DNA of 34,993 bases from an uncultured Thermoplasmata archaeon (lineage in GTDB: Archaea > Thermoplasmatota > Thermoplasmata > UBA10834), in contig CAYOXJ010000001.1 in NCBI GenBank assembly GCA_964407905.1, positions 25,752 to 60,744 on the forward strand, given 5' to 3'. A model generated the notes under the pieces. That model made no database searches and had not been told where the DNA came from. It saw only the letters and a list, made by a program, of their open reading frames with translations. The position numbers and the translations under genes were made by a program. Each line of letters starts with the position of its first letter. Position 1 is the stretch's first letter. Positions 10,801-32,012 of the stretch are shown here, in pieces.

Positions 10801-11686
10801 CGCATACCACGGCCGGAAGAAGCACTGCGAAGTCTGCCCGACGATCCGCACGATAAAGACCCAGCAGGCGGCACACGAAGTGGTTCCAAGGATAGGTCCA
10901 ATGGGCGAGACTGTTGGGTGGCTGGATCTGTACAGTTTTCCATTGTTGGATTCCGAGACGGGCGAACTCAAGGGCGTCATCGAGTATGTAAGAGACGCGA
11001 CCGACAGAAAGCGGTACGAGGACGCACTCAAACGCGCAAACGAGAAGCTGCAGCTCCTCGGCAGCGTTACGAGGCATGACGCTCTCAACCAATTATCGGT
11101 CCTCGCCGGATGGCTTGAGATTGCTAGAGGAGCGCCAGGGAACGACACGGTCATGGAATACTTGGATAAGATGAAGGGGGCGGTCGACAGCATCAGAAAC
11201 CAGCTGGAGTTCACGGCGGACTATGAGAAGATGGGATTGAACGAGCCTGCCTGGGTAGACGCTGAGGACGCATTTCGGCGGGGGGTATCGGGCCTCGGGT
11301 TCGAGGGAGTAACAGTGATCTGCAAGCTTGGCGGTCTCGAGGTATTCGCCGACCCGATGTTGGACAAGGTCTTCCACAACCTTCTGGACAACTCCCTGAG
11401 ACACGGCGAGAAGGTGAGTGAGATCAAGGTGCACTTCAAGGAGTCCAAGTCCGGCCTCTCGATCATCTACGAAGACAACGGAATCGGGATACCAGACAAG
11501 GAGAAGAAGCTCATCTTCCATCCTGGACGGGGGAAGCACACTGGCTACGGCCTTTTCATGGTGAACTCGATCCTCGGCATTACTGGTCTGTCGGCCGAGG
11601 AGACAGGCACGCCCGGAGAAGGAGCGCGGTTCGAGGTTCATGTCCCACCAGGCAAGTACAAGGTGGCGGCCGAGGACAAGTCCTGA
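7838..11686 (+). CDS. Hybrid sensor histidine kinase: N-terminal receiver domain, about six PAS domains, one GAF domain, HisKA-like and HATPase_c domains
   Basis: 1282 aa. The REC domain has VLLVDHD...AIVADYAMAEMNG...FTGKG. Repeated PAS-type blocks follow coiled linkers (ESERRFREM, SDQRFRMLAENAQD, SEARYRAVFENTG, and others). A GAF-like region is present (VSRVYIFEY...ILAMPL). The H-box is TRHDALNQL (His at 11075-11077). ATPase motifs are HNLLDNSLRHG, YEDNGIGIP and GYGLFMV. Confidence 0.85.
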   Translation: MINVLLVDHDPPILELTQFFLERDGRFKVDTATSARSALDKMARKTYDAIVADYAMAEMNGLELLKLLRNQGNDIPFVLFTGKGREDVAIEALNCGADYYLQKGGDPKSQFAELAHVIFQSVSQRTAVEELRESERRFREMLQNIRHIAVLLDARGRITFCNDYFLSVTGWESDEVMGGDWFDLFISPEQRADMRKYFDILVGGGEVPLDLGHENEIATRKGEKLLISWDSTILRDRKNNIIGTASIGVDMTQSRLRQEAEKQLRETTSQLEAIFKSYPDLLFQLTPDGTIVGYRAGRMQDLYVPPEQFLGKRIASVLPSDASKVVVDAVERVVRTGSLTSCSYSLVLQDGQEHFYEARLLPVSEAKILAIVREITEIRKKQEELRKSDQRFRMLAENAQDLIFRYRYLPERGFEYVSPSATAITGYTPEEHYADPELGTKIVHPDDRPILEALMRPPITSAGSVMLRWIRKDGRVLWTEMRYTPVLDKDGTLVAIDGMSRDISDRKLAEQMMQQNIRNMATLLDSLPGYAFLKDSRSVYVTANERFCRAVGCPKEEIPGKTDYDLFSRQMAEKFRSDDQRVLSSGGPIYVGEEDMIEGDRHITVVTRKVPMRSDTDDVVGIIGLGFDITERKHWEDELRKRLEYENLLAKISADAVRVGHLGVFLNESLGMMGELMDVSRVYIFEYNDAQKTFSNTYEWVSSGVKSERATLQNMPVSRFPLWMEKMLRNEIIVFDDIDDIRSEVDRERLVPQGIKSILAMPLYLSNGTMYGFMGIEECKRKRKWSEEDANILRAFSRIMTDVVERKAMESAISESEARYRAVFENTGTAIAIFEEDMTISMINDEFTRLSGYRKEEIVGRKWTSFVAKEDLARLKQYHQLRRKDSASAPASYEFHYVDREGNMRLIQATVSMIPGTTRSIGSFVDVTELKKAERALLESGRFLGSVFGSIQDGISILDRDMNIIQVNSAMEKWYSHKMPLVGKKCYDAYHGRKKHCEVCPTIRTIKTQQAAHEVVPRIGPMGETVGWLDLYSFPLLDSETGELKGVIEYVRDATDRKRYEDALKRANEKLQLLGSVTRHDALNQLSVLAGWLEIARGAPGNDTVMEYLDKMKGAVDSIRNQLEFTADYEKMGLNEPAWVDAEDAFRRGVSGLGFEGVTVICKLGGLEVFADPMLDKVFHNLLDNSLRHGEKVSEIKVHFKESKSGLSIIYEDNGIGIPDKEKKLIFHPGRGKHTGYGLFMVNSILGITGLSAEETGTPGEGARFEVHVPPGKYKVAAEDKS

Positions 11687-14871: not shown

Positions 14872-15348
14872 CTAGATGAACTCGGCCTCTATCTTCCTCA
14901 GAATCTTGGGCAGGGCTTTGGAGACCTCAGGCGTGAGATTCTCGCTGACGTTCGTGACGTCCTCTGCCTCTATTGCGAGGAAGACCACCTCCTTTGGCAT
15001 CTGCTCGGGGATGAGCCTCCTGCCAAGCGCAAGCGCAGTTGCCATGTTTATTCCATGAGGAGAGGACCCGTGAATAGCCTTTTCGAAATCCTTCTCATCC
15101 AGCACGTAGAGCTCACCCGGCCTTCCCTGCTTCGTCTGAATAGCATCTATGATAATGACCCTGTCATATCCTCTGACCACGTCGAGGAGTTCCAGGCCAC
15201 TTGCCGCGAGTTCCTCCACGTTGACCCCGGGAATCTCCTTGTCCCTCAGCCTTCTGGCAACATGGATTCCCACGCCGTCGTCAGATAGGATCGGATTGCC
15301 AACTCCAAGCACTAGGGTCTTCACAGATGTCCGTAGATCATTGGCCAT
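14872..15348 (-). CDS. Hydrogenase maturation endopeptidase (HyaD/HybD/FrhD family)
   Basis: 158 aa. The N-terminus LVLGVGNPILSDDGVGIHVA, the later IIIDA, and the His in GSSPHG are typical of Ni-dependent C-terminal processing proteases. It is the last gene of the mvh cluster. Confidence 0.85.
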   Translation of the reverse strand: MANDLRTSVKTLVLGVGNPILSDDGVGIHVARRLRDKEIPGVNVEELAASGLELLDVVRGYDRVIIIDAIQTKQGRPGELYVLDEKDFEKAIHGSSPHGINMATALALGRRLIPEQMPKEVVFLAIEAEDVTNVSENLTPEVSKALPKILRKIEAEFI

Positions 15349-15412: not shown

Positions 15413-16927
15413 TCAGAAGTTTCTCTGGGCAGTGAGGAGCGAGCCGTCCTTCCGCCTCACGTTGACCTCTAGCGCGGGAGCACCGTTCAAAGCGTGCGTG
15501 CCACACGAGTTGCACGGGTCGTAGCACCTGAAGGCCATCTCGACCTTGTTCAGAAGGCCGGGCGAGATTTCGCCGTTCTTGATCAGAGCCTTCGCTGCCT
15601 GTCTCACGCTCGTGTTTGTCGCAGCGTAGTTGTTGGTCGTCGCCACGATCATGTTAATCTTTGTGCACAGTCCGTTCTTGTCCGCTGCGTAGTGGTGAAT
15701 CAGGGTGCCCCTCGGTGCCTCGCATATGCCCACGCCCTCCTTTGGCTCCTTGAAGGGTCCTCTGATGTCGTCGCTGGTGATGCTCCTGTCGCTCGCGAGT
15801 TCGAGCATCCTCTCGGTCGCATATTGGAGCTCGATCACGCGCGCCCAGTGGAACGCGAGCGTGTGATGGACTGGACCCGTGACTCCGAGGTCCTTCATCG
15901 TCTTCTTGAAGATCTCGTACTCAGCCTGCGCCAGCGGGGTCGTGTACCCCGTGCAGACGTTTATCCTGCCCAGCGGACCAACTCTGTATATGCCGCTGGA
16001 GGCGCCGTCCACGAATCCTTTCCAGCCAACCTTCTTCAGGTATGGCATCTTCATGTAGGTCCAGGGCTCAACATGCTCGGCGATGACGTCCAAGTACTCG
16101 CTGGGCTTAAACTTCACGACCTCCTTGCCAGCCTGATCGACAACGCGTATGTCTCCGTCGTAGAAGTTGGTCTTGTTGTTCTTGTCGACCATGCCCATGT
16201 AGTAGGTCTCGAGGTAGTAGGCATCCTTGTTGAGCACGAAGCCCAGATAGTCCTTGTTGCCCAGCACCACGTCGTGGAACAGCTTGATGGTGAACTTGCC
16301 GAACTCGACGCAGGACTTCGCCATGTCCTCCATCTTCGCGCGCTCCTCCTCACTTATTTGCTTCGAGACGCCTCCGGGCAGGCCGAACACTGGGTGCGTT
16401 GCACGGCCGCCGACGATCTCCTGCACCTTCTGGCCGTAGGACCTGTGCTTGATGACCTCGGCACCTATCGGCACGCCCACGGCATCGACCACGCCCAGAA
16501 CGTTCCTCTTGTTCGAGGGCGCCGACGGGCCGAGCACGAAGTCAGGCGCAGCGAGGGCGTAGAAGTGGGCGATGTGGCTGTGGGTGTACTGCCCCATGTA
16601 GAACAGCTCCCTGAGCTTCTTTGCGGTCTCCGTTGGCGTTGCGTCGAACACCGCGTCCAGCGCCTTCGTCGATGCGATGTGATGTGCGGCTGGACAGACA
16701 CCGCAGAGCCTGTTCGTCAGCACGGGCAACTCCATCACGTGTCTGCCTATACAGAACCTCTCGAATCCCCTCAGCTCTGGGATCTGCAGGTACGCATTCT
16801 CGACGTTCCCTGCATCGTCCAGGAATATCTCGATCTTGCCATGTCCCTCTAGCCTCGTGATGGGGTCAATGGTTATCTTCCTCTCCTTCGTCTTCACTGG
16901 TGTGTCGTTGATAATTGGTCCAGCCAT
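15413..16927 (-). CDS. mvhA: [NiFe] hydrogenase large subunit, Mvh/Vhu-like (group 3c by context)
   Basis: 504 aa. It has RLEGHGKIEI and the N-terminal Ni-Fe ligand motif RLCGVCPAAHH. The C-terminal ligand motif DPCNSCGTH is followed by a 26-aa tail (ALNGAPALEV...), as expected for a protease-cleaved extension. Confidence 0.9.
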   Translation of the reverse strand: MAGPIINDTPVKTKERKITIDPITRLEGHGKIEIFLDDAGNVENAYLQIPELRGFERFCIGRHVMELPVLTNRLCGVCPAAHHIASTKALDAVFDATPTETAKKLRELFYMGQYTHSHIAHFYALAAPDFVLGPSAPSNKRNVLGVVDAVGVPIGAEVIKHRSYGQKVQEIVGGRATHPVFGLPGGVSKQISEEERAKMEDMAKSCVEFGKFTIKLFHDVVLGNKDYLGFVLNKDAYYLETYYMGMVDKNNKTNFYDGDIRVVDQAGKEVVKFKPSEYLDVIAEHVEPWTYMKMPYLKKVGWKGFVDGASSGIYRVGPLGRINVCTGYTTPLAQAEYEIFKKTMKDLGVTGPVHHTLAFHWARVIELQYATERMLELASDRSITSDDIRGPFKEPKEGVGICEAPRGTLIHHYAADKNGLCTKINMIVATTNNYAATNTSVRQAAKALIKNGEISPGLLNKVEMAFRCYDPCNSCGTHALNGAPALEVNVRRKDGSLLTAQRNF

Positions 16928-16931
16928 GTGA

Positions 16932-17948
16932 TCACCCCTTCCTTTTCTTCTTCTCGGTCACAGCCCTCTTCAGCGGGGACTTGGGTAGTGTGAAAGCGTA
17001 GAAGGTCCCAAGCGGGTCTTTGACCTGCATCATCATCTCCATGATCTGTTCCTCACTTAGCTTTGACTCCGAATCCGTGATGTTGAGGAGCGACGACAGT
17101 GCGCTCAGCATGCTAGCGCCCTGGTCGGTCACCGCCTTCGTCGGGCCCATGCAGCCTCTGCACGGCATATTCGCGTTCGGGCACATCGCGCCGCAGCCAG
17201 CCCGCGTCGCCGGGCCGATGCATATTATGCCCTGATCGAGCAAGCACTTCTTCGGGTCGGGCTTGATCTCGTAGGCCTGGTAGATCTTCTCAATCCTCCT
17301 GCCTTTCTCGACCCGCTCCCTCTTGCACTCGTCGCAGAGGGTCTTGTCCGAAGCGATGACCGTCCCCTTCGGCGGAAGAGGCGCTCCCTTCGTCACGTGC
17401 TGTGCCACCGCATCCACGGCCATGGCGATCAGGTTGACCGTGGGCGGGCAACCTGGCATGAAGTAATCGACGTCGACCACCTCGTCGAGCGTCTTGACTG
17501 TGTCGTAGAACTCGGGCAGTTCCAGCTCCCCCTCGGGAACCTTCAGATGCGACTGCGGGGTCACGAAACCTGGATTGTCGGTCGACACGGTATTCTTGTA
17601 GACCGTCTCGAAGACTTCCTTTCTGTTCGTCACGTTCGCTAGCCCGGGCGTCCCGCCGTAGCACGCGCACGAGCCGAAGGCAATCATGACAGCAGACTTC
17701 TCGCGCAGAATCTTGGCCACGTGCTCGTTTTCGGAGTTGCGAATCGCGCCATTGTAGAAGCTCACGGTTATGGACTTGTCCGGCATTGCCTCGATTTCCT
17801 TCAGCTTGCCGTCGAACCCGATCGGCCAGAACACGACCTCTGCGATCGCGTGGACGTCCAGGATCCTCGCATCGATGTCCAAGAGCGCGACGTCGCATCC
17901 TCCGCACCCCGCGCCCCAGTACTGTGCGATCTTGATCTTGTCTGCCAT
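16932..17948 (-). CDS. mvhG: [NiFe] hydrogenase small (Fe-S) subunit, MvhG-like
   Basis: 338 aa. It has the proximal-cluster motif YWGAGCGGCDVALLD, then GSCACYGG and MPGCPP. C-terminal Cys clusters are also present (CDECKRE, CIGPATRAGCGAMCPNANMPCRGC). Confidence 0.85.
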   Translation of the reverse strand: MADKIKIAQYWGAGCGGCDVALLDIDARILDVHAIAEVVFWPIGFDGKLKEIEAMPDKSITVSFYNGAIRNSENEHVAKILREKSAVMIAFGSCACYGGTPGLANVTNRKEVFETVYKNTVSTDNPGFVTPQSHLKVPEGELELPEFYDTVKTLDEVVDVDYFMPGCPPTVNLIAMAVDAVAQHVTKGAPLPPKGTVIASDKTLCDECKRERVEKGRRIEKIYQAYEIKPDPKKCLLDQGIICIGPATRAGCGAMCPNANMPCRGCMGPTKAVTDQGASMLSALSSLLNITDSESKLSEEQIMEMMMQVKDPLGTFYAFTLPKSPLKRAVTEKKKRKG

Positions 17949-17949
17949 C

Positions 17950-18342
17950 TCAGTTCACCTCTACCTTCTCAGGCTGTGCCCTGCTTGGCGCGGCCCTGTA
18001 CTGCGGCGACTGACCCTTCATGCCGACCTGGTCAACCAGCCTCCATCTCTTGAGGGCGATTATGTGCTTCACGATCTCAGGCTTCGGTATGCCTGTGATG
18101 TCGTGCAGCTCGTGAACGGTCCTCGGGCCTTCCTCCATTTCCTGCAGCAAGAGGTTTCTCTCCAGCTCCACGCCTGCGGCCTTCTGCACTATGAAGCTGT
18201 ATCTCGCGTCAGTGATGGCCTCTCCGAAGACGTTTCCCTGTGTCGTCAGCTGGCCCTTCTTTCCCAGAAGCCATCTGACCCTCTCTCCCTCGACTGTTCT
18301 CAGTGCCGCGCGTATCTTGGCCTCCCTGATGGACATCCTCAT
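17950..18342 (-). CDS. Free-standing homologue of the winged-helix-like C-terminal extension that is fused to MvhD in the two upstream modules; function unknown
   Basis: 130 aa, ATGA-coupled to mvhD-d. TQGNVFGEAI and ERNLLLQEMEEGPRTVHELHDITGIPKPEIVKHIIALKRWRLV align by eye with EEGNVYGDKL...ERSLILLLTKNNNMSVKDLSKKMNVPTDRVLEHIVVLRQKNLI in ORF 21838-22602. Confidence 0.6.
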   Translation of the reverse strand: MRMSIREAKIRAALRTVEGERVRWLLGKKGQLTTQGNVFGEAITDARYSFIVQKAAGVELERNLLLQEMEEGPRTVHELHDITGIPKPEIVKHIIALKRWRLVDQVGMKGQSPQYRAAPSRAQPEKVEVN

Positions 18343-18803
18343 TCACCACCTACCATGGGGGACGGTCCAAGTTCCTTAATCGTGTTGGTGAAGGAGATGA
18401 TGGTCTTCTGGAACTTCTCGCCCTCGCCTGCTGATACCCATTCCAGGCGCAGCCTGTCAGGGTCGAATCCGAACTGCTGTATGAGCATCTTCAGCAGCGC
18501 CATCCTCCTGCGGGTCCTGTAGTTGCCGCCTATGTAGTGGCAGTCCGCGGGATGGCAGCCTGCAACGAGGATTCCATCGGCCCCCCTGTTGAACGCCCTC
18601 AGGACGAACTCGGGGTCCACTCTTGCGGAGCACATTACCCTGATCACCCTGAAGTAGGGGGGCATCTGCAGCCTGCTGACCCCAGCAAGGTCGGCGCCTG
18701 CGTACGAGCACCAGTTGCAACAGAACACGAGAATCTTGGGCTCGAACTGCCCGCCTGTCTCCTCGCCCTGGTGCGCGGAAGTGTGCGTCGCCTCGCTGCT
18801 CAT
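18339..18803 (-). CDS. mvhD: MvhD-type [2Fe-2S] iron-sulfur protein (copy d, stand-alone domain)
   Basis: The track ORF extends to 19037 inside hdrA, so I take ATG 18803 (MSSEATHT...), which overlaps the hdrA-d stop (ATGA), giving 154 aa. It has FCCNWCSYAGADLAG, VMCSARVDP and GCHPADCHY, the MvhD/FlpD signature. Confidence 0.85.
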   Translation of the reverse strand: MSSEATHTSAHQGEETGGQFEPKILVFCCNWCSYAGADLAGVSRLQMPPYFRVIRVMCSARVDPEFVLRAFNRGADGILVAGCHPADCHYIGGNYRTRRRMALLKMLIQQFGFDPDRLRLEWVSAGEGEKFQKTIISFTNTIKELGPSPMVGGE

Positions 18804-21800
18804 TGCTTCGCCTCCTGCTTCGGGTTTTCCCCCACGAGCGCAGCATCGATCATCGCGTAGATCTGCTCGTCCCTGTACCCCTTCTGTGTCAGCGCGCCAG
18901 ACGGGCATGCGCCTACACAGGCTCCGCAGCCCTTGCAGAGGCCGACGTTGATCTCGACAAGCTTCTTGTCTTTGTTCTTCTTGTCGGGTACGATCTCCAT
19001 GGCCTTGTACTCGCAGATGGGAACGCATATGCCACATCCGTCGCAGAAGGTCTCGTCGACGCTCGCGACGATGCCCTCAGCCTCGAGCGTCGTCTTCGAC
19101 AGCACGGTGGTCGCCCTCGAGACAGCAGCCAACGCCTGCGCGATGCTCTCGTCGACGAACTTCGGGCCATGCGCGAGACCCGCGAGGTATATGCCCTCCG
19201 TGGCGAAGTCAACCGGCCTGAGCTTCATGTGCGCCTCGAGGAAGAATCCCTCCTTTGTCTGGGGAACTTTGCACATGGGCGCCAGCTCACCGGCATCCTC
19301 CTGAGGCCTCGTGCCTGCAGCGAGGACCAGGTGGTCCGGCTTCAGGACGATCTCCTTGCCAGTGTCCTCGTCGGTCACGCTGACCTCGAGCTTTCCAGCC
19401 TTATCCTCGACACGTGGCTTGACCTTGTCATCAAATCGGACGAATATCACTCCTTTCGAGCCGGCTTCCTTGTAGTACTTCTCTCTGAATCCGTAGGTCC
19501 TGATGTCTCTGTAGAGCACGAAGACCTTCGCGTTGGGGTCCCTCTCCTTGATCTTCATCGCCGCGGTCATCGTGCCAGTGCAGCAGACGCGGGAGCAGTT
19601 CGGATTCTTATCCTCCCTCGAGCCTACGCACTGTATGAACACGTACTCCTTGCCCTTGGCCTCGCCCTTCGCAAGCTTGTCCTTGAGCTCGAGCAGAGTC
19701 ATGACTTTCTTGTTCTTGCCGTAGAGATACTCGCCCTCGGGCTTGTGCTCCTCGCCGCCTATGGCGACGATCACGATACCATGTTCGATCTCCTCGCCCG
19801 TCGTGAGCTTGGTCTTGAAGTTGCCAACATAGCCGTCCAGCGACTTGACCTTCGAGCCAAGGTAGACAGTTATATTCGGGCTCGAGGTGACCTTCTTGTC
19901 GAGCTCTCTCACGTACGCTGCGGGGTCGTCGCCCGATGGCAGGTAGTGAAGCTTCTTTGCATTTCCTCCGAGCTCCTTCTCTCTCTCGACCAGGTGCACT
20001 TTAAAGCCCTGCTTCGCGAGCTCGAGTGCTGCGACCATGCCAGAAACCCCTCCGCCGACTACCAATGCCTGCTGGTTGACGTTCATTGTCAGATTCTGCA
20101 GCGGCTCGAGTAGCCTCGCCTTCGCGACCGCCATCCTGACTAGGTCCTTCGCCTTCTTGGTGGCGGCCTTCGGCTCATGCATGTGTATCCACGAGCACTG
20201 GTCCCTGATGTTTGCCATCTCGAAAAGATAGGCATTGAGGCCCGCTTCTTTGATGGTGTTCTGGAACAGTGGCTCGTGAGTCCTTGGCGTGCAGCTCGCC
20301 ACCACCACCCTGTTCAGCTTCAGCTCCTTGACCTTCTCCTTGATCTTCTCCTGCGTGTCCTGGGAACAGGTGTATAGGTTCTGCTCAGCGTAAGCCACGT
20401 TGGGCAACGTCTTCGCATACTCCATGACCTCTGGAACCTTCACGACGCCGCCGATGTTGATCCCGCAGTGGCAGACGAAGACGCCTATCCTGGGCTCCTG
20501 GCCCTCGACACTCGTCTCGGGCGGGTATTCCTTCTTTGTGACAAGGGTGTTCCTCGCCCCAGCGATCTCGGTGCCGGCCTTCGCAGCTGCACCCGACGCC
20601 TCCGCGACTGTCATCGGGATGTCCTTTGGTGAAGAGAACGCGCCGCTGACGAATACCCCCGGCCTGGTGGTCTCGACCGGCGCGAACACGCTCGTCTGTG
20701 CGAACCCGTCGTCGTTCAGCTTGAACTCCATGATCTTGCTCAGGTTCTCGGCGTCCGCAGGTGGCCTGAGTCCAACGGCCAGGACGACGAGGTTGAACTC
20801 CTCCTCCTTCGGTTCGCCGTTCTCGACGTACTTGAGCTTCAGGTTCTTCGTCCTCGAATCCTCCGAGACGGCAGCGATCCTCGACCTGACGAACTTGATT
20901 CCATACTCGTTCTGTGCTCTGTTGTAGTACTCGTCGAACTCCTTGCCGAAAGCCCTCATGTCCATGAAGAATATTGAGGGCTTGATGTCACCGCCATGCT
21001 CCTTGGCGATGACCGCCTCCTTTATGGAGTACATGCAGCATACGCTCGAGCAGTATTCGTTTCCGCAGTGCTCGTCCCTGGATCCGACGCACTGGATGAA
21101 CGCGACCTTCTCCGGTATGTCGCCATCGGAAGGCCTCAGAACAGTGCCCATGTACGGTCCCGTGGCCGAGAGCATCCTCTCGAACTCGATGCTCGTGACG
21201 ACGTTCTTGTACACGCCATACCCGTACTCTGTCTTCAGCCGCGCATTGAACTCGTCGAAGCCTGGGGAGACGATGACAGAGCCGACCTTGATCTCAAGCA
21301 CCTTCTCCTTCTGGTCGTATTCCACAGCCTTCGCCTTGCACTCCTCAGCACATATCCCGCAGCCGATGCACTTGTCCGGGTCGATCGAGTAGACCAACGG
21401 AACGGCCTGCGGGTATCTCACGTAGATCGCCTTCCTCACCTTGGTGTTCTCGTCGAACTCGTTGGACGCTTCGATCGGACATTTCTGCGCACAGCTGCCG
21501 CAGCCAGTACACTTCTTCGGGTCCACTCTGAAGGCATGCTGCTTCACTATCACGCTGAAGTTGCCCGCCTCACCGTCGAGCTTCGCGATCTCTGCGTTTG
21601 TTATCAGCTCGATGTTGTGGTGCCTGCCCGTCGCGACCAGCTTCGGAGCCATGATGCACATGGCGCAGTCGTTGGTGGGGAAGGTCTTGTCGAGCTGTGC
21701 CATCACTCCGCCTATGCTCGGCTGCTTCTCGACCAGGTACACCCTGTATCCGGAGTCAGCAAGATCGAGAGCGGACTGCATCCCTGAGATGCCGCCGCCG

Positions 21801-21838
21801 ACGACCATGACCGCTCCGATCTTGTCGGTCGCTGCCAT
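18800..21838 (-). CDS. hdrA: Double-module HdrA-like flavoprotein, copy d (about 1012 aa)
   Basis: N-module (aa 1 to ~430): VVGGGISGM, DKTFPTNDCAMC, an inserted 2x[4Fe-4S] ferredoxin (CTGCGSCAQKCP, CIGCGICAEEC) and CVGSRD..YCSSVCC. C-module (aa ~450 to end): HdrA N-domain RIGVFVCHCGINIGG..ASCTPRTH, a second VVGGGVSGM, CVGSRED..CSRVCC, and a C-terminal 2x[4Fe-4S] (CDGCGICVPIC, CKGCGACVGACP). The start is ATG 21838 or GTG 21841, both overlapping the upstream TGA. Confidence 0.9.
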   Translation of the reverse strand: MAATDKIGAVMVVGGGISGMQSALDLADSGYRVYLVEKQPSIGGVMAQLDKTFPTNDCAMCIMAPKLVATGRHHNIELITNAEIAKLDGEAGNFSVIVKQHAFRVDPKKCTGCGSCAQKCPIEASNEFDENTKVRKAIYVRYPQAVPLVYSIDPDKCIGCGICAEECKAKAVEYDQKEKVLEIKVGSVIVSPGFDEFNARLKTEYGYGVYKNVVTSIEFERMLSATGPYMGTVLRPSDGDIPEKVAFIQCVGSRDEHCGNEYCSSVCCMYSIKEAVIAKEHGGDIKPSIFFMDMRAFGKEFDEYYNRAQNEYGIKFVRSRIAAVSEDSRTKNLKLKYVENGEPKEEEFNLVVLAVGLRPPADAENLSKIMEFKLNDDGFAQTSVFAPVETTRPGVFVSGAFSSPKDIPMTVAEASGAAAKAGTEIAGARNTLVTKKEYPPETSVEGQEPRIGVFVCHCGINIGGVVKVPEVMEYAKTLPNVAYAEQNLYTCSQDTQEKIKEKVKELKLNRVVVASCTPRTHEPLFQNTIKEAGLNAYLFEMANIRDQCSWIHMHEPKAATKKAKDLVRMAVAKARLLEPLQNLTMNVNQQALVVGGGVSGMVAALELAKQGFKVHLVEREKELGGNAKKLHYLPSGDDPAAYVRELDKKVTSSPNITVYLGSKVKSLDGYVGNFKTKLTTGEEIEHGIVIVAIGGEEHKPEGEYLYGKNKKVMTLLELKDKLAKGEAKGKEYVFIQCVGSREDKNPNCSRVCCTGTMTAAMKIKERDPNAKVFVLYRDIRTYGFREKYYKEAGSKGVIFVRFDDKVKPRVEDKAGKLEVSVTDEDTGKEIVLKPDHLVLAAGTRPQEDAGELAPMCKVPQTKEGFFLEAHMKLRPVDFATEGIYLAGLAHGPKFVDESIAQALAAVSRATTVLSKTTLEAEGIVASVDETFCDGCGICVPICEYKAMEIVPDKKNKDKKLVEINVGLCKGCGACVGACPSGALTQKGYRDEQIYAMIDAALVGENPKQEAKQ

Positions 21839-22602
21839 CACTGCTCACCCCCGATCTCTATCGTTCGGTATGTCGGTGTGAACCCCTCTGGGTGGTCCAT
21901 GGCTATGAGATTCTTCTGCCTCAGGACGACTATGTGCTCCAGCACTCGATCCGTTGGAACATTCATCTTCTTCGAGAGGTCCTTCACGGACATGTTGTTG
22001 TTCTTCGTAAGCAGAAGGATCAATGATCTCTCGAATTCCTGCTTTGTGGCATTGTATATGATGTCCAGAAGCTTCTCCTTGCCTAGTTTGTCCCCGTAGA
22101 CATTTCCCTCTTCGACAATCTTCAGCTCATTGCTCACAAGGGCCCTCAATCTGAAATCGCTGAGGGCATTGCGTACTGCCACCAAGCCATTCATTATCTT
22201 GCCCGCGTTGCTTGGGCCCAGTTTCTCGAGTTCTCCTGTGAAGTCTCTGATGAGATCGGCGAATCGTTGTCCTTCAGAAGCACTCACCCACTCAAGCCGC
22301 ACTCGCCGTGGGTCAGAACCTGCGAGCTCAAGGATCCTCTTTGCGAGGCCAATCTTGCAATCAGCCTGGAGGTTGCCGGTCAGATAATGGCAGTCTCCGG
22401 GATGGCATCCTCCGACGAGGACACCATCTGCGCCCTGAATCAGAGCTTCAACTATGAGGACAGGATCAACCCTGCCTGAGCACATCACGCGAATTGTCCT
22501 GATGTTCGGCGGGTACTGGAACCTCGAGACTCCAGCCAGATCCGCACCTGCATAGCTGCACCAGTTGCAGAGAAAGCCCACAATGCGTGGTTCGAAGGCC
22601 AT
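21838..22602 (-). CDS. mvhD: MvhD-type [2Fe-2S] protein fused to a ~115-aa winged-helix-like C-terminal extension (copy c)
   Basis: 254 aa. The N-terminus has FLCNWCSYAGADLAG, VMCSGRVDP and GCHPGDCHY. The C-terminus has MSVKDLSKKMNVPTDRVLEHIVVLRQKNLIAMD, an HTH/wing-like pattern. Its start abuts the hdrA-c stop. Confidence 0.85.
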   Translation of the reverse strand: MAFEPRIVGFLCNWCSYAGADLAGVSRFQYPPNIRTIRVMCSGRVDPVLIVEALIQGADGVLVGGCHPGDCHYLTGNLQADCKIGLAKRILELAGSDPRRVRLEWVSASEGQRFADLIRDFTGELEKLGPSNAGKIMNGLVAVRNALSDFRLRALVSNELKIVEEGNVYGDKLGKEKLLDIIYNATKQEFERSLILLLTKNNNMSVKDLSKKMNVPTDRVLEHIVVLRQKNLIAMDHPEGFTPTYRTIEIGGEQ

Positions 22603-25636: not shown

Positions 25637-26425
25637 TCACGCACCTCCTATCCCAAAGCTCTGTGCGCTCCGGTAGAGGGGCGTTGCGCCTTCTATGCGA
25701 GAGAGCCTCACCAAATCGCGATCCTTGAGCGTCACAATATGCTGCAAGATCTTTGTTGCGGGCAGATTCAGAGTTGCTGCAAGTTCTTTCACAGAAACTG
25801 GCCTATCAGATGCGGCGAGCAATATCTCTATTCGCGCAAATTCGTCATCCATTACTGAGTCGAGCAATGCATCCAGTTCCTCTTCGGGTATCTTCTTTCC
25901 GAAGACATTCCCCTTCTCGGAGAACTCGACATATTTGCCGAGCAGAGACCGAATCCTGACGTCTTCGACAACATTTTTCGCTGCGAACAGAAGCCTGAGT
26001 TTCTTGATGTCAGGATGTTCACCACTCACTGGACTTGGACCGAGCTCAGAGATCTGCTTTGTGAACTCCGTCATGAGCTTTGCAAAACGTTCTCCTTCTG
26101 ATGCACTCACCCATTCGAGCCTCAAGCGCTCCGGCTCGAAGCCGCATTTTGCCAGAAGTCTCCTGGCGACCTTCATGCGCTGCTGCGCGAAATAGTTGCC
26201 CTTGATGTAGTGGCAGTCGCCAATATGACATCCGCCAACAAACACACCGTCCGCGCCCTGAATGAACATTTCTAGGACGATGTCCGGGTCAACGCGTGCG
26301 CTGCACATGACCTTGACAATTCTTATTTCTGGCGGATATTGGTACCTGCTCACTCCAGCGAGATCCGCGCCAGCATAGCTGCACCAATTGCACATGAAAC
26401 CTATGAGTTTCGGTTCGAAGGGCAT
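25637..26425 (-). CDS. mvhD: MvhD-type [2Fe-2S] protein fused to a winged-helix-like C-terminal extension (copy b)
   Basis: 262 aa. It has FMCNWCSYAGADLAG, VMCSARVDP and GCHIGDCHY. The C-terminus has EKGNVFGKKI...VSVKELAATLNLPATKILQHIVTLKDRDLVRL. Confidence 0.85.
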   Translation of the reverse strand: MPFEPKLIGFMCNWCSYAGADLAGVSRYQYPPEIRIVKVMCSARVDPDIVLEMFIQGADGVFVGGCHIGDCHYIKGNYFAQQRMKVARRLLAKCGFEPERLRLEWVSASEGERFAKLMTEFTKQISELGPSPVSGEHPDIKKLRLLFAAKNVVEDVRIRSLLGKYVEFSEKGNVFGKKIPEEELDALLDSVMDDEFARIEILLAASDRPVSVKELAATLNLPATKILQHIVTLKDRDLVRLSRIEGATPLYRSAQSFGIGGA

Positions 26426-26429
26426 CTTT

Positions 26430-26702
26430 CTACCTCCCTATTGTGCCTGACATGAGCCCACGCACGCAGAGCATGAAATTGCACTCGTCGGTCAGTCTTC
26501 GTTCGCAAGTGTGACAGCGCAACGCGATGAGGAGGTTCCTCAGTATCAGACTCTTTGTCTCAGCATCTACATTGGGCAGCGAGGTCTCTGCCATCTCCAA
26601 GCTCTCATGCTGGACTCTCCCCCAACGCGGCAGAGTTGAGAAGTGTTTCTTGAACAGCCAAGCGGTCCTTATTGCGTTCACCTCGTCCTTCTCGTTCTTC
26701 AC
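26430..26702 (-). CDS. Hypothetical 90-aa protein with a C-terminal CxxC...C-x5-C motif (coding status uncertain)
   Basis: The ORF exactly fills the space between hdrA-b(C) and mvhD-b. Its GTG start forms a GTGA overlap with the hdrA-b(C) stop, and it ends 4 nt before the mvhD-b ATG. It contains RCHTCERRLTDECNFMLC. I recognise no homologue. Confidence 0.4.
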   Translation of the reverse strand: MKNEKDEVNAIRTAWLFKKHFSTLPRWGRVQHESLEMAETSLPNVDAETKSLILRNLLIALRCHTCERRLTDECNFMLCVRGLMSGTIGR

Positions 26703-28576
26703 AGGACCACCTCTTTGATCCCCGCCAAACCTTCGACGATGAGTTGTTCATCTGTATAGTGCAGCATTGTGATGGCCTTCTCAGGACACCCTGCTCCGCA
26801 CGCACCACAGCCCTTGCATGCAGCCTTGATCACCTTTGCCTTCATACCTTTGGGACCGCGTTCCACCGTGATTGCCGAGTACGGGCAAAGCGTTGCACAG
26901 ATTCCGCACCCTACACACGAGTCTGTGTCCACATCTGAGGCAATTGCCTCAGCGAGAACGTAGCCTTTGCTGAGAGGTATCGCAGCCCTTGACGCCGCTG
27001 CGGCCGCCTGCGTCACACATTCCGTGATATCGGATGGACCTCTGCAAGTCCCGCAGACATAGATGCCGTCCGTCGCGAAGTCAACTGGTCTCAGCTTCAC
27101 ATGCGCCTCCAGGAAGAACCCTTCCTGGCCCAGGGGTACCTTGAGCTTCTGCGACAGCTCGCCGGCATCTGGCTGGGCGACCAATGGTGTCGACAGGATG
27201 ACCATGTCGACAGCCATCGTCCTCTCGAGCTTCAGGGTCTCGTGGAAGTAGCCCACTGTCAGCTGGTTTCCTTCCATGAAGACCTTGGGCGCGTTTTCCG
27301 GGATGTATCTGACGAACTTGATTCTCTTCTCCCTCGCCTTGTTGTAGGTCAGCTCGTGCTCGACGCCGTAGGCCATGACGTCCCTGTTGAACACGGTGAT
27401 TTCTATTTTCTCAGAAGGCCCGAGCTTGACCTCCTCAGCCCCAGCTTCCTCACCTCTCTCGCGTCCGCGCCTTCTGCGCCTGCGCTCAAGGATCTCCTCG
27501 GGGGCCTTCTGCTCGACAGGTATCTTCTCGACGACCGTGCCCTCCTTCTCCATCAGGCCGAGCATGTTCTCGTAGTTGTCCACTATGTTCATCGCGTTTT
27601 TGACAGCGACGTTGCAGCAGATTCTTGAGCAGTAGCTCTTGACCTGGCCCCTCGAGCCGACGCATTGAATGAATGCGACGTTCTTGAGCTTCGGGAGCGT
27701 CTTCTTCTTGCAGAGTATCTCGAACTCGGTCAGCGTGACGACGTTGGGGTATTGGTTGTATCCGTACAGGCCCTCAGGAACGAACTCGAGGGCACCCGTT
27801 GCGACTATGATTGTTCCGACCTTCGCCTTCGTGTCCTCTGCGCCCTTGGTTCCTATGACGATGTCGTAATTGCCGATGAACCCCTGAACCGCCTTGAGCG
27901 TGGAGTTCATGTAGAGCTTGATGTTCTTGTGCGCCCCGACCTCCTCGATGAGCGGCTTGATGGTCTCGGTTGCGCTCTTCTCTGTGACGTAGAGGTTGTT
28001 CAGATTCCTCACGAAGCCGCCAAGCTCGTTCTCTTTCTCGATCAGATGAACCGGAAATCCCATGTCTGCCAGAGACAACGCGGCAGTCATGCCAGATACC
28101 CCACCACCTATCACCAGTGCTGCGGCGGTCACATCGACTTTCTCCTCTTCCTGCGGCTCGAGCAGCCTCGCCCTGGCGACGCCCATCCTGATCAGATCCC
28201 TGGCCTTCTTGGTCGCCTTGTCCTTCTCCTTCATGTGCACCCAAGAGCACTGCTCGCGGATGTTGACGAATGTGAACAGATACTTGTTCAGGCCTGCGCT
28301 CTCACAGGTCGCCTGGAATAGCGGCGCGTGGGTTCTTGGAGTGCAGCTGGCCACTATCACCCTGTTCAGGTTGTGCTTCTTGATCCCTTCCCTTATGTCG
28401 TTCAGACCATCCTCGGCGCAAGTGTAAAGATTGTCAGTAGCGTAGACAACGTCAGGGAGCGTCTTCGCGTACTCCGCGACCGACGGAACATCGACAAATC
28501 CACCGATGTTCGAACCACAATGGCATACGAACACGCCGATTCTCGGCCCTTGCTTGCTCTCAGTCTTCTCAGCCAT
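26699..28576 (-). CDS. hdrA: HdrA-like flavoprotein, copy b C-module as a separate gene (625 aa)
   Basis: It starts MAEKTESKQGPRIGVFVCHCGSNIGG, the HdrA N-domain. It continues with ASCTPRTH, VIGGGVSGM, CVGSRGQVKSYCSRICC and a C-terminal CVGCGICATLCP/CKGCGACGAGCP. GGAGGGG lies about 10 nt upstream of the ATG. Confidence 0.9.
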   Translation of the reverse strand: MAEKTESKQGPRIGVFVCHCGSNIGGFVDVPSVAEYAKTLPDVVYATDNLYTCAEDGLNDIREGIKKHNLNRVIVASCTPRTHAPLFQATCESAGLNKYLFTFVNIREQCSWVHMKEKDKATKKARDLIRMGVARARLLEPQEEEKVDVTAAALVIGGGVSGMTAALSLADMGFPVHLIEKENELGGFVRNLNNLYVTEKSATETIKPLIEEVGAHKNIKLYMNSTLKAVQGFIGNYDIVIGTKGAEDTKAKVGTIIVATGALEFVPEGLYGYNQYPNVVTLTEFEILCKKKTLPKLKNVAFIQCVGSRGQVKSYCSRICCNVAVKNAMNIVDNYENMLGLMEKEGTVVEKIPVEQKAPEEILERRRRRRGRERGEEAGAEEVKLGPSEKIEITVFNRDVMAYGVEHELTYNKAREKRIKFVRYIPENAPKVFMEGNQLTVGYFHETLKLERTMAVDMVILSTPLVAQPDAGELSQKLKVPLGQEGFFLEAHVKLRPVDFATDGIYVCGTCRGPSDITECVTQAAAAASRAAIPLSKGYVLAEAIASDVDTDSCVGCGICATLCPYSAITVERGPKGMKAKVIKAACKGCGACGAGCPEKAITMLHYTDEQLIVEGLAGIKEVVL

Positions 28577-28582
28577 CTGAAA

Positions 28583-29893
28583 TCACGCCCCTCCCGCCTG
28601 GGCAGTGGCCTGTGCCATGACCTCAACCGCCTTTGCGGCAGCGCTCGAGCCCTGGGCGACGCTTTCTGGTATGTCCGCTGGTCCTGCGCAGTAGCCGGCC
28701 AAGTACATGCCGGGGACGACGGTCCTGCCGAAGTCAAGTATCCTGTCGGTTGATTCCAGGAATCCGAATTCGTCGGTCTTCAGTCCCAGGATCTTGGCAA
28801 GCTCCAATGTCTCCTTTCTCGGGACGAGAGTGGTCGCGAGGACTACCATGTCGAACTCCTCGGACTGTTGCCTCCCGCCCACGTCGAACACAACAATCGG
28901 GTTATGGGTTTCGGGGTTCTCCTGAACGGTAGCGTCTGAGTTGATGTATCTCACACCGTAGTCGCGCTTGGCCCTTTCGATGTACTCGTAGAATCCCTTG
29001 GCGCACGCTCGCATGTCCTTGTAGAAGATGGTCGACTCCATGTCGTCGTGGTGCTCGCGTGCCAACATTGACTCCTTGGTGGAGTGCATGCAGCACACCG
29101 AACAGCAGTACGGATGTCCAACCTGCGGGTTTCTCGAGCCCACGCACTGGATGAACGCCATCTTCATGGGTCTCTTCTTGTCTGATCTGCGCTCGATGTG
29201 TCCATGGGTCGGGCCCGCGGCATTGATCATCCGCTCGTATTCCATCGCCGTGAAGACGTTCGGGTACTTGCCGTACCCGTACTCCGTCGACGAGGAGGGG
29301 TCCCAGACGTCATAGCCAGTTGCGACTATTATCGCGCCGACCTCGATCTCCAGCATCTGGTCCTTCATCTCGTAGTCGATCGCCTCTCTCTTGCAGGCCT
29401 TCTTGCAGTTCCCGCACTTGCCCTTGGTGAACATGATGCAGTTCTCTTTGTCGATCGTCATGACTCTGGGCACTGCCTGCATGAAGGGCATGTATATCGC
29501 CTTCCTGTTGGCGAGCCCCATCTCGAACTCGTTCGGGACCTTGCTCGGGCACTTCTCGAGGCATTCTCCGCAGCCAGTGCATTTCGTCTCGTCCACGAAC
29601 CTGGCCTTCTTAAGCACCTTGACTCTGAATCCGCCAGCCTTCCCCTCGACTCCGACCGCCTCCGCGTATGTGATGACGTTTGTGTTTGGGTGGCTGAAGC
29701 AGTCCGCCATCTTCGGTGCCAGAATGCATATCGAACAGTCGTTCGTCGGGAACGTCTTGTCCAGCTGTGCCATTCGTCCGCCGATGCTGGGCGTCTTCTC
29801 GATTAAGTGGACTATTATTCCCTTGTCAGCGAGGTCAAGGGCCGCCTGTATCCCAGCGACTCCTCCCCCGATCACCATCACAGACCTCTCCAT
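28583..29893 (-). CDS. hdrA: HdrA-like flavoprotein, copy b N-module as a separate gene (436 aa)
   Basis: VIGGGVAGIQAALDLADKG, DKTFPTNDCSICILAPKM, an inserted ferredoxin-like region (CTGCGECLEKCP, then the divergent CIMFTKGKCGNCKKAC) and CVGSRNPQVGHPYCCSVCC. It ends at the position that is the inter-module linker in the fused copies. AAGGAGG lies upstream of the ATG. Confidence 0.9.
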   Translation of the reverse strand: MERSVMVIGGGVAGIQAALDLADKGIIVHLIEKTPSIGGRMAQLDKTFPTNDCSICILAPKMADCFSHPNTNVITYAEAVGVEGKAGGFRVKVLKKARFVDETKCTGCGECLEKCPSKVPNEFEMGLANRKAIYMPFMQAVPRVMTIDKENCIMFTKGKCGNCKKACKREAIDYEMKDQMLEIEVGAIIVATGYDVWDPSSSTEYGYGKYPNVFTAMEYERMINAAGPTHGHIERRSDKKRPMKMAFIQCVGSRNPQVGHPYCCSVCCMHSTKESMLAREHHDDMESTIFYKDMRACAKGFYEYIERAKRDYGVRYINSDATVQENPETHNPIVVFDVGGRQQSEEFDMVVLATTLVPRKETLELAKILGLKTDEFGFLESTDRILDFGRTVVPGMYLAGYCAGPADIPESVAQGSSAAAKAVEVMAQATAQAGGA

Positions 29894-30014
29894 CCAAAGA
29901 CCTCCTTAGACCCTTGCTTGTCAGATTCTCATTATCTTGCCAGTCACAGTTGCGAGTCAGGGCAGCCTCTTTCCGTAAACCATACTTTGTAATATGTGTT
30001 TCGTTGAATGGCTG

Positions 30015-30410: not shown

Positions 30411-32012
30411 TCATTCGAGCGCTTCTGCGACGACCACGCTCAGGTCCTTGATCGGGATCTCGATCTGCTCCTTTGGCGTCTGCGTCTTGTTGTTCACGAT
30501 GGCACAGCTCAGGTGTATCAGGCACTTGTAGCAGCCTGTCACGAGACATCCCGCGCCGGACTTCTTGGCCTCTTTGAGCCTCTCGACCTGGAGCTTCCGG
30601 GATATCTCATCGCAGGTGGCCCACGCGCTGACGCCGCAGCACACAGCCTTGTCCCTCGTGTTCTCCATCTCCACTAGCTGCGTGCCCTCGACAGCCTTCA
30701 GAGCATTCCTGGGCGCGTCGAAGATGCCAAGGTGTCTGCCCAGCCTGCATGAATCCTGAAAGGTGAATTTCCCGGTGCCCTTCTTGAACCTCAGCTTGCC
30801 CTCTTGCACGAGATCGTCGATCAGTTCTGAAATATGCATCATCTCGAAGTCGAAGTCCCCCATGAAGTCCTGGTAGTCCAAGTTGAAAGTGCGCATGCAC
30901 TCAGGGCACGAGAACACGACCTTCTTCGCGCCCGAAGCCTTTATGAGCTCGACATTCTTCTTCATCAGTTTCTGAAGGCTGGCCTCGTCGCCTATCCAGT
31001 TGAGGTCATGTCCGCAGCATACTTCGTCGTTGCTGACGACCGGGACAATGCCCGCCCTGTTCATAATCTTTACTGCAGCCTGGGGTATGCCAGCGAGTTT
31101 GAGATCTTCCCTGTCCTTGAATATTGAATCGTAATAGGATACGCAGCCCGTGAAGTAGAAGACATCGCCCTTGTCGGATATCTTGAGCTCGGGCGTCATC
31201 CAGCCGATGCGGTTCTGCTTCAGTTTGCTGTTCGCCTGGATGCGCATGACCGCTTGGATGATACCTCCCTGAGAACAAACGGCCTCATTCCCCAACGCAG
31301 AGGCCTCGGCTCTCATGCCCCTGATGAAGCCCGAGTAATCGACCTTGTAGGGACACATCGCGTTGCACTGTTCACAGGTCACGCAGGTCCAAACATCGCG
31401 ATTCGTCGCGACATTGTCAACGATGCCCTCCATGGCCTTGAGCACGATTGTCCTCGGGGCGAAGTTCGGGTTGTATTTCGCGACTGGGCACACGGTAGTG
31501 CACTTGCCGCACTCGACACAGTCGAACGCACCAGTGTCTTCAATCAGCTGGTCAATCTTCTTCTTCAGGTTGGCGGGATTGCTCTTTCTCGACTGCGCCC
31601 TTGGGAGCGGATTCGGTCCGATGACCCGGATCTGCTCAGTGAACTCCCTCATTGTGGCAGCGAACTTCTGCCCCTCCGAGGCGGATATCCATTCGAGCCT
31701 CATGCGGTTCCTGCCGAGGCCTAGTTTGTCCAAGACTTCCATCGTAGAGGCCATTCGCTTCTCGGCCTCGACATTCCCCTTGACGTAGTGACAGTCCCCT
31801 ATGTGACAGCCGGCGACAAGAACGCCATCCGCTCCAAGTTCGAGCGCCTTCAGGACGAAGTACGGTTCCACGCGGCCCGAGCACATGACTCTGATGATCC
31901 TCGCATTGGCAGGATACTGCATCCTGGAGACGCCCGCGAGGTCTGCACCTGCGTATGAGCACCAGTTGCAGCAGAAGGCGACTATGTTCGGCTCGAACTT
32001 CGCGTCCGTCAT
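30411..32012 (-). CDS. Triple fusion MvhD-HdrC-HdrB (MvhD [2Fe-2S] domain + 2x[4Fe-4S] ferredoxin + two CCG domains)
   Basis: 533 aa. The MvhD part has FCCNWCSYAGADLAG, VMCSGRVEP and GCHIGDCHY. The HdrC-like part has CVECGKCTTVCP and CVTCEQCNAMCP. The HdrB-like CCG motifs are GCVSYYD...EVCCGHD...SCPECM and DSCRLGRH...AVCCGVS...GCYKCL. The ATG overlaps the hdrA-a stop (ATGA). Confidence 0.85.
   Translation of the reverse strand: MTDAKFEPNIVAFCCNWCSYAGADLAGVSRMQYPANARIIRVMCSGRVEPYFVLKALELGADGVLVAGCHIGDCHYVKGNVEAEKRMASTMEVLDKLGLGRNRMRLEWISASEGQKFAATMREFTEQIRVIGPNPLPRAQSRKSNPANLKKKIDQLIEDTGAFDCVECGKCTTVCPVAKYNPNFAPRTIVLKAMEGIVDNVATNRDVWTCVTCEQCNAMCPYKVDYSGFIRGMRAEASALGNEAVCSQGGIIQAVMRIQANSKLKQNRIGWMTPELKISDKGDVFYFTGCVSYYDSIFKDREDLKLAGIPQAAVKIMNRAGIVPVVSNDEVCCGHDLNWIGDEASLQKLMKKNVELIKASGAKKVVFSCPECMRTFNLDYQDFMGDFDFEMMHISELIDDLVQEGKLRFKKGTGKFTFQDSCRLGRHLGIFDAPRNALKAVEGTQLVEMENTRDKAVCCGVSAWATCDEISRKLQVERLKEAKKSGAGCLVTGCYKCLIHLSCAIVNNKTQTPKEQIEIPIKDLSVVVAEALE

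Follow-up and report, generated by a model that had tools for sequence, protein, structure and literature searches.

The stretch of DNA analyzed here, hereafter the window, comprises 34,993 nt from an uncultured Thermoplasmata archaeon (GCA_964407905.1, CAYOXJ010000001.1, positions 25,752-60,744; coordinates below are window positions). It carries a long minus-strand operon of hdr and mvh genes in which two MvhD proteins, MvhD-c and MvhD-b, continue beyond their [2Fe-2S] domain into a C-terminal extension (EXT). This extension occurs three times in the window, twice fused to MvhD and once as a separate gene (EXT-a), and is a widespread, so far uncurated module of such enzyme clusters. It probably acts as a protein-docking adaptor that places the [2Fe-2S] cluster of MvhD against a neighboring module in multi-HdrA assemblies, and not as a transcription factor. 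The combination of a delta subunit with a helix-turn-helix (HTH) was already known from the protein BamF; the split third copy, the two-part anatomy of the module and its large family extend the initial observation.

Copies and predicted fold of the extension

Both proteins that the initial annotation had described as MvhD with an extra tail, at 21838-22602 (MvhD-c) and 25637-26425 (MvhD-b), were confirmed as minus-strand open reading frames (ORFs) with a full-length PF02662 (FlpD) domain (residues 7-129, 175.6 bits, and residues 8-129, 181.6 bits, respectively; cut-off 22.3). The [2Fe-2S] cysteines, CNWC ... MCS ... GCHxGDCHY, were present in MvhD-a, -b, and -c, as read directly from the alignment. 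Peptides quoted previously from the extensions were found verbatim, and the ranges first given for them (21841-22185 and 25640-26008) lay inside the true ones while being slightly short (Table 1). The conserved motif had been written as (E/Q)GNV(Y/F)G. Copy c does contain EGNVYG (GNVYG at 22093-22107); copy b reads KGNVFG (GNVFG at 25898-25912), and the glutamine version, QGNVFG, belongs to EXT-a, a third, split copy that had not been listed, so that the original count of two was too low.

Similarity among the three extensions is far beyond chance. The extension of MvhD-c shared 36% identity with that of MvhD-b (E = 4e-27), which in turn shared 34% with EXT-a (E = 2e-18), and EXT-a holds the same winged-helix segment. 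MvhD-a ends in LGPSPMVGGE, exactly at the domain boundary past which copies b and c run on. The start codon of EXT-a overlaps the stop codon of mvhD-a (ATGA), its end lies 1 nt before mvhG, and the gene is kept at the same place in loci L004, L005, L007, and L069-L072.

Structure prediction and profile searches supported a two-part anatomy, with a predicted helical sub-domain that includes a near-invariant GNV(Y/F)GE loop and, C-terminal to it, a winged helix resembling those of ArsR/SmtB. The AlphaFold2 (AF2) model of MvhD-c formed one compact body, with a predicted local distance difference test score (pLDDT) of 88.6 and a predicted template-modeling (TM) score of 0.86; the extension block had pLDDT values of 91-97. 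Sub-domain 1 was modeled as helices 137-147, 150-157, and 159-164, followed by the loop with GNVYG (166-170). The winged helix (pLDDT > 90) comprised helices 175-198, 206-213, and 217-229 and a beta-hairpin wing at 233-247. When EXT-a was modeled alone, the overall pLDDT was 81 and that of its N-terminal sub-domain fell to 64-75, versus 91-97 in the fusion. Because confidence was lower in isolation, these values are consistent with packing of the N-terminal sub-domain on MvhD.

A profile of the EXT family, built from 50 diverse members, matched ArsR/SmtB proteins in the PDB over its positions 56-118 (HlyU, 6e-7; PH1932, 2e-6; SmtB, 4.5e-5; E values ranging to 1e-3). Positions 1-55 had no PDB match, and sub-domain 1 had no match in Pfam either. 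Foldseek identified the N-terminal domain of MvhD-c as MvhD (E = 1.9e-14; target-normalised TM 0.83-0.88; root-mean-square deviation 2.4 Å; 5ODH_D, 7BKB_F, 8RVU_F), with 55% identity, TM 0.83, and a deviation of 2.4 Å for chain D of 5ODC/5ODH. The C-terminal domain was matched to Z-alpha, NolR, SqrR, HlyU, CzrA, and SmtB with probability 1.0, and the model of EXT-a gave the same winged-helix matches. No single chain with both an MvhD and a winged-helix domain was returned by Foldseek against the PDB. Single window sequences gave many sub-threshold matches to winged-HTH (wHTH) families of Pfam, including HTH_24, TrmB, and HTH_5 for MvhD-c. On HTH_5 (gathering score 22), EXT-a scored 25.1 bits, above the threshold, while copies b and c scored 20.9 and 14.6 bits, and MvhD-b matched HTH_20 with 25.7 bits (E = 1.1e-5). 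Scores against the NCBIfam model HTH_metalloreg (ArsR/SmtB) were 21.8-25.5 bits versus a cut-off of 55. No model in Pfam or NCBIfam covered the module of GNVYGE loop and winged helix. The initial reading of the tail as an ArsR/MarR/TrmB-type HTH plus wing was thus borne out for its C-terminal half, as a winged helix of the ArsR/SmtB type, by the PDB profile, the AF2 models and Foldseek.

Family, genomic contexts and known relatives

An exhaustive HMMER profile search against 1.84 billion representatives assigned 335 clusters at 50% identity to the EXT family (E <= 1e-3), 203 of them at E <= 1e-10. Among the best 150 clusters, about half carry an N-terminal MvhD domain; the rest are mainly standalone proteins of ~110-135 aa, with a few larger fusions. 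In P0197 (1737 aa) the order is HdrA-FlpD(598-720)-EXT(724-841)-Fer4-GltD-like and in P0229 it is FlpD-EXT(57-171)-GltD-like, while P0171 joins MvhD-EXT to a homolog of the 90-aa ORF of the window. HdrA-MvhD(FlpD)-EXT fusions were found in P0123, P0188, and P0231. They resemble HdrA2-type fusions (type Ia HdrA; Methanosarcina HdrA2B2C2), in which MvhD is also covalently joined to redox partners; in the type Ia HdrA described so far, however, the MvhD domain is the last one. Type II HdrA and MvhD fusions are covered by surveys of HdrA diversity and of archaeal fusions, neither of which describes a winged-helix tail (PMC12054007, PMC11237513). Two further proteins represent a different module context: P0204 (756 aa) has no MvhD domain, and P0221 (516 aa) appears to have none. 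In P0204, two stretches match the EXT profile and a Fer4 dicluster domain is located at the C-terminus.

One genome per GTDB species was scanned with a degenerate DNA pattern back-translated from EGNVYGEK. Of the 56 loci obtained, 34 were true family members; the remaining 22, which encoded unrelated proteins or lay in non-coding DNA, were set aside. All 34 true loci, in named genomes, were located inside hdr gene clusters, in Bathyarchaeia, Thermoplasmata, Methanomassiliicoccales, Hadarchaeota, Odinarchaeota, Archaeoglobi, Bacillota/Clostridia, Chloroflexi, and one proteobacterial metagenome-assembled genome (MAG). The constant gene order was HdrA (often split into N- and C-terminal parts), MvhD-EXT, a type II HdrA of ~1000 aa, plain MvhD, and HdrC/B or MvhG/MvhA. 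MvhD-EXT stood immediately upstream of the ~1000-aa type II HdrA in at least 22 of the 34 loci, with plain MvhD next in 19. Standalone EXT proteins of Thermoplasmatota carry the source label 'ArsR family transcriptional regulator', yet wherever inspected their genes lay between mvhD and mvhG.

The bacterial loci L009-L012 contain selenocysteine (Sec) codons in HdrA and in MvhD-EXT, and a GltD-like gene (Fer4_20 + Pyr_redox_2) is next; the HdrA upstream of MvhD-EXT is split into 66 + 917 aa. In MvhD-EXT (L009, 7695-8519; also L010-L012), the Cys position of GG[C]HLGECHY is taken by an in-frame TGA, which probably encodes Sec. Such replacement in GGCHxGxCHY was confirmed for these four loci only. 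Members of ~210 aa starting with MCSGRVDP were considered as Sec-truncated forms and rejected, as most are alternative start calls whose clusters hold full-length members of 256-263 aa.

The closest precedent for MvhD-EXT, and by analogy its probable counterpart with a docking role already assigned, is BamF of the class II benzoyl-CoA reductase (BCRII) of Geobacter metallireducens (BamBCDEFGHI). In a genome paper of 2007, Gmet_2083 (BamF) appears under the entry 'hydrogenase, delta subunit; HTH mo[tif]' (PMC1924859). According to a cryo-EM preprint of 2026, BamF is an adaptor homologous to MvhD that exceeds the known MvhD proteins by more than 100 aa; its wHTH contacts BamI and connects BamGHI, the input module, with BamE, a fused dimer of HdrA (bioRxiv 10.64898/2026.04.10.717634). 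Compared by description only, BamF and the window proteins share an MvhD-type [2Fe-2S] domain with an extension of more than 100 aa that includes a wHTH. Their partners are also alike, the fused-dimer HdrA BamE on one side and the 1013-aa HdrA with two TrxR domains that adjoins copies b and c on the other. The systems differ in that BamF serves an aromatic ring reductase with a HydBC-like NADH/ferredoxin input, whereas the window combines a [NiFe] hydrogenase with arrays of type II HdrA. Moreover, Sec19 of BamF contrasts with a Cys in the window proteins; BamF is described as containing a wHTH and two Rossmann-fold domains, whereas the window model consists of one MvhD domain, the GNVYGE sub-domain and the winged helix; and the window module also occurs as a separate gene. 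No Geobacter-named members were present among the cluster members of 20 family representatives, where the names encountered were 'NC10' and 'Thermodesulfobacteriota' only, and searches of the PDB by sequence and fold returned no long MvhD chain or BCRII structure. Beyond the BCRII preprint, no literature on MvhD with a winged helix or C-terminal extension was found.

Canonical MvhD/VhuD of MvhAGD-HdrABC and Fdh-Hdr complexes (5ODC_D, 7BKB_F, 8RVU_F, 9SW2_D) are 52-55% identical to the N-terminal 132 residues, superimpose with TM 0.83-0.88, and have the same Cys ligands and the genomic partners HdrA and MvhAG. In contrast to the window proteins, MvhD chains of solved structure in the PDB are all 129-141 aa long with no C-terminal module, and the partner is a type I HdrA. 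The ArsR/SmtB repressors HlyU, SmtB, CzrA, NolR, and SqrR share the alpha-alpha-alpha-beta-beta winged-helix core; EXT differs from them by the missing alpha5 and sensing residues, by the additional N-terminal GNVYGE sub-domain, and by being always encoded in hdr/mvh clusters, often fused to MvhD.

A winged helix on an Mvh/Hdr subunit is therefore not the novelty that the initial annotation had implied, as the module occurs in 335 clusters from several archaeal and bacterial phyla and BamF was annotated as early as 2007. That annotation had named two outcomes that would count against it, namely absence of a winged-helix fold or a known, common extension with a structural role. The fold was found, so that the former does not apply; the latter is true in part, since the extension is common and a docking role has been assigned to the wHTH of BamF.

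Docking adaptor or regulator

As a docking adaptor, EXT would serve HdrA/MvhD electron-bifurcation assemblies as a structural module of their own, in which an ArsR-like winged helix has been recruited for protein-protein contact. Placed on the C-terminal face of MvhD, by fusion or as a protein translated adjacent to it, the module would help to dock the [2Fe-2S] relay onto a neighboring module. This module may be the type II (fused-dimer) HdrA for copies b and c, the MvhAG hydrogenase for the split copy a, and a GltD-like NAD(P)H module in other lineages. From these gene orders we infer which partner each contact surface would face. Among the three ideas offered in the initial annotation, a docking adaptor or a winged helix repurposed for protein contact is the one that the evidence favors.

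A structural, protein-contacting role is favored because EXT undergoes fusion and fission with MvhD, occupies internal positions in oxidoreductases, is translationally coupled, occurs in three copies per operon, and shows the same synteny in archaea and bacteria. The occurrence of one module in fused (b, c) and separate, coupled (a) forms, with the break at the domain boundary, counts for docking, as do the size and composition of the family and the conservation of the HdrA cassette in archaea and bacteria. In P0197 and P0229, EXT lies amid oxidoreductase polypeptides, where a transcription factor is not expected. The compact packing of EXT on MvhD in the AF2 model and the presence in the window of four type II HdrA and four MvhD domains point in the same direction, and contact of the BamF wHTH with BamI provides a precedent. 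In a set of 119 representatives sharing <60% identity, conservation was highest at R23, R25, and G38-N39-V40-Y41-G42-E43, all in sub-domain 1, and at E61, I67, L99, and P115-x-Y117 in the wing. The strongest conservation lay outside the HTH (R23, R25, GNVYGE, E61, and P-x-Y of the wing), while exposed positions of the recognition helix reached only 0.7-1.5 bits, a distribution that also argues for docking. Several observations weigh against this role: the winged-helix half is genuinely similar, by profile, to ArsR/SmtB proteins that bind DNA, EXT-a exceeds the HTH_5 gathering score, the third HTH helix is basic (mean net charge +2.5), the two Rossmann-fold domains reported for BamF were not seen in the model of MvhD-c, and the identity of the contacted partner follows from gene order only.

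The ArsR/SmtB-like winged helix, seen by profile and by fold, the HTH_5 score of EXT-a and the basic third helix also form the case for a functional DNA-binding domain, by which MvhD-EXT and standalone EXT would regulate or autoregulate the hdr/mvh operon and possibly report the redox state of the [2Fe-2S] cluster in MvhD, as a 'trigger-enzyme'; the source label of the homologs points the same way. We regard such regulation as unlikely. The AF2 models lack the alpha5 dimerisation helix, the chain ending 7-13 residues past the wing with no further helix. Sensing sites made of Cys or His are missing from EXT, as are the metal- or redox-sensing residues of ArsR (alpha3 Cys; alpha5 His/Asp/Glu); 79% of the members, and all three window copies, contain no Cys at all. 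The winged helix as a whole is approximately neutral (mean net charge +0.26) and the wing neutral to acidic (mean -0.14, positive in 23%). Recognition-helix residues are poorly conserved whereas a motif outside the HTH is near invariant, and the NCBIfam ArsR/SmtB scores are far under the cut-off. An internal position in large oxidoreductases and three translationally coupled copies in one operon also speak against a regulator, as does the synteny shared by archaea and bacteria, which differ in their promoters. The 121-nt spacer at 29894-30014 contains no operator-like inverted repeat; the upstream region of the operon runs past the window end. The redox-responsive regulator proposed in the initial annotation thus found no positive support. 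DNA binding by EXT as such is possible but unsupported, and distinctly unlikely; we infer its absence. That the winged helix is still DNA-competent, with the Hdr/hydrogenase subunit or free EXT-a shuttling between the enzyme and the operon promoter, is most improbable; if true, the redox or assembly state of the complex would feed directly into transcription, through a trigger-enzyme circuit that archaea and bacteria have both conserved.

Two other readings keep EXT within the enzyme. It might be a regulatory latch or gate. A small ligand or a mobile domain (such as the C-terminal ferredoxin domain of HdrA, ferredoxin, or a thiol/disulfide carrier) would then be bound by the winged helix and the GNVYGE loop, which would govern the conformational changes by which electron flow via MvhD is gated. 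The near-invariant loop and the R-x-R motif do resemble a specific binding site and not a generic scaffold, EXT always stands beside the [2Fe-2S] relay, and the BamF-containing arm of BCRII rotates by ~28 degrees between states (bioRxiv 10.64898/2026.04.10.717634). This reading is nevertheless rather unlikely: no ligand-binding family matched the N-terminal sub-domain in Pfam, NCBIfam, or PDB profile searches, and static and dynamic docking look alike under present evidence. EXT could also be a mere intramolecular stabilizer of MvhD, or the remnant of a fused neighboring regulator gene, with no specific partner. It is indeed packed tightly on MvhD in the AF2 model, and canonical MvhD functions without it. 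Strong purifying conservation across a deep divergence, from archaea to Bacillota, retention of EXT as its own gene after fission, and the strict tie to type II HdrA cassettes make this explanation very unlikely. Docking of MvhD onto a neighboring redox module remains the reading that we consider probable.

Operon organization and implications

MvhD-c and MvhD-b lie within the minus-strand operon, in which adjacent genes abut or overlap by 1-8 nt (Table 1); the stop of MvhD-c shares 4 nt with the start of the type II HdrA that follows it.

Table 1. Positions of the hdr/mvh operon genes and of the extension in the window, in order of transcription.
Feature	Position	Strand	Remarks
Type II HdrA	32009-34987	-	First in transcription order within the window
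MvhD-HdrC-HdrB fusion, 533 aa	30411-32012	-	MvhD (FlpD) + HdrC-like Fer4 + HdrB-like (2x CCG)
Cys-rich ORF, 125 aa	30015-30392	-	Two copies of ELSCKD(R/K)KCSPCTYPNCQRF segment
Split type II HdrA	28583-29893 (436 aa) + 26699-28576 (625 aa)	-	Arg/Glu-rich insert EEILERRRRRRGRERGEEAGAEE
Cys-motif ORF, 90 aa	26430-26702	-	Between split HdrA and MvhD-b, just upstream of the latter
MvhD-b, 262 aa	25637-26425	-	MvhD domain 26033-26425 + extension
Extension of copy b, residues 132-262 (131 aa)	25640-26032	-	
Type II HdrA, 1013 aa	22603-25644	-	Directly downstream of MvhD-b; 58% identical to 18800-21841
MvhD-c, 254 aa	21838-22602	-	MvhD [2Fe-2S] domain + extension
MvhD domain of copy c, residues 1-132	22207-22602	-	CNWC...MCS...GCHPGDCHY
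Extension of copy c, residues 133-254 (122 aa)	21841-22206	-	
Extension sub-domain 1, copy c, residues 133-174	22081-22206	-	Three short helices + GNVYG loop (predicted)
Extension sub-domain 2, copy c, residues 175-250	21853-22080	-	Winged helix (predicted)
Type II (double TrxR-domain) HdrA, 1013 aa	18800-21841	-	Directly downstream of MvhD-c
MvhD-a, 154 aa	18339-18803	-	Plain, without extension; partner of EXT-a; PF02662 187.3 bits
EXT-a, 130 aa (128 aa from second ATG)	17950-18342	-	Standalone extension gene
mvhG, [NiFe] hydrogenase small subunit	16932-17948	-	PF01058; immediately downstream of EXT-a
mvhA, [NiFe] hydrogenase large subunit	15413-16927	-	PF00374
HycI-type maturation protease	14872-15348	-	

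Between 18800 and 34987 (minus strand), the operon encodes four type II HdrA, one of them split, and four MvhD domains. Three of the four MvhD of the window have EXT, fused in b and c and split in a; the fourth carries HdrC-HdrB at the same C-terminal place. This MvhD-HdrC-HdrB fusion was also found in L004 and L005 (531 aa). In the HdrA encoded at 18800-21841, Pyr_redox_2/NAD_binding_8 was found twice, near residues 12 and 593, together with Fer4; this HdrA matched the NCBIfam model HdrA2 with 1028 bits. The unit of MvhD-EXT and HdrA is duplicated in tandem in the window; one such unit is present in L004 and L005, and two in L007. Metagenome contigs carry identical proteins, and Thermoplasmatota MAGs, including the 1.97-Mb contig CP070732.1, near-identical operons.

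Two small ORFs accompany these genes. The 125-aa ORF had no Pfam match; similar ORFs (blastp E <= 1e-5) adjoin genes of the HdrCB type in L051 and L055, two loci of Methanomassiliicoccales, and in L005/L006 the equivalent position is taken by a gene of 137 aa that carries no annotation. The 90-aa ORF, with the C-terminal motif LRCHTCERR..C.F..C.RGLMSG, had no match in Pfam or NCBIfam. Gene calls of L001 and L007 include it, its homolog forms the C-terminal part of P0171, and it is possibly a further small or accessory subunit of the assembly.

Outside the operon, a hybrid sensor kinase of 1282 aa (7838-11686, plus strand; receiver, multiple PAS, GAF, HATPase) adjoins the hdr/mvh operon here as in L004 and L005; as a regulator of the locus it would be a more conventional candidate. 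An uninterrupted MttB-superfamily methyltransferase gene (476 aa, 3159-4589, minus strand) has no in-frame stop codon and the protein was therefore taken as a non-pyrrolysine member, which fits non-methanogenic Thermoplasmatota relatives of Methanomassiliicoccales.

Clusters with type II (double) HdrA are abundant in uncultured archaea (Bathyarchaeia, Thermoplasmatota, Asgard) and in anaerobic bacteria, and no biochemistry exists for them (PMC12054007). Recognition of EXT corrects a recurring mis-annotation, in which hundreds of standalone copies are labeled 'ArsR family transcriptional regulator'. In each cassette EXT, conserved and easy to recognize, singles out one particular MvhD and lies where the next redox module joins; it thereby offers a concrete handle for predicting the wiring of multi-HdrA assemblies. 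It also suggests that the docking principle of the BamF wHTH is general and not a peculiarity of benzoyl-CoA reductase.

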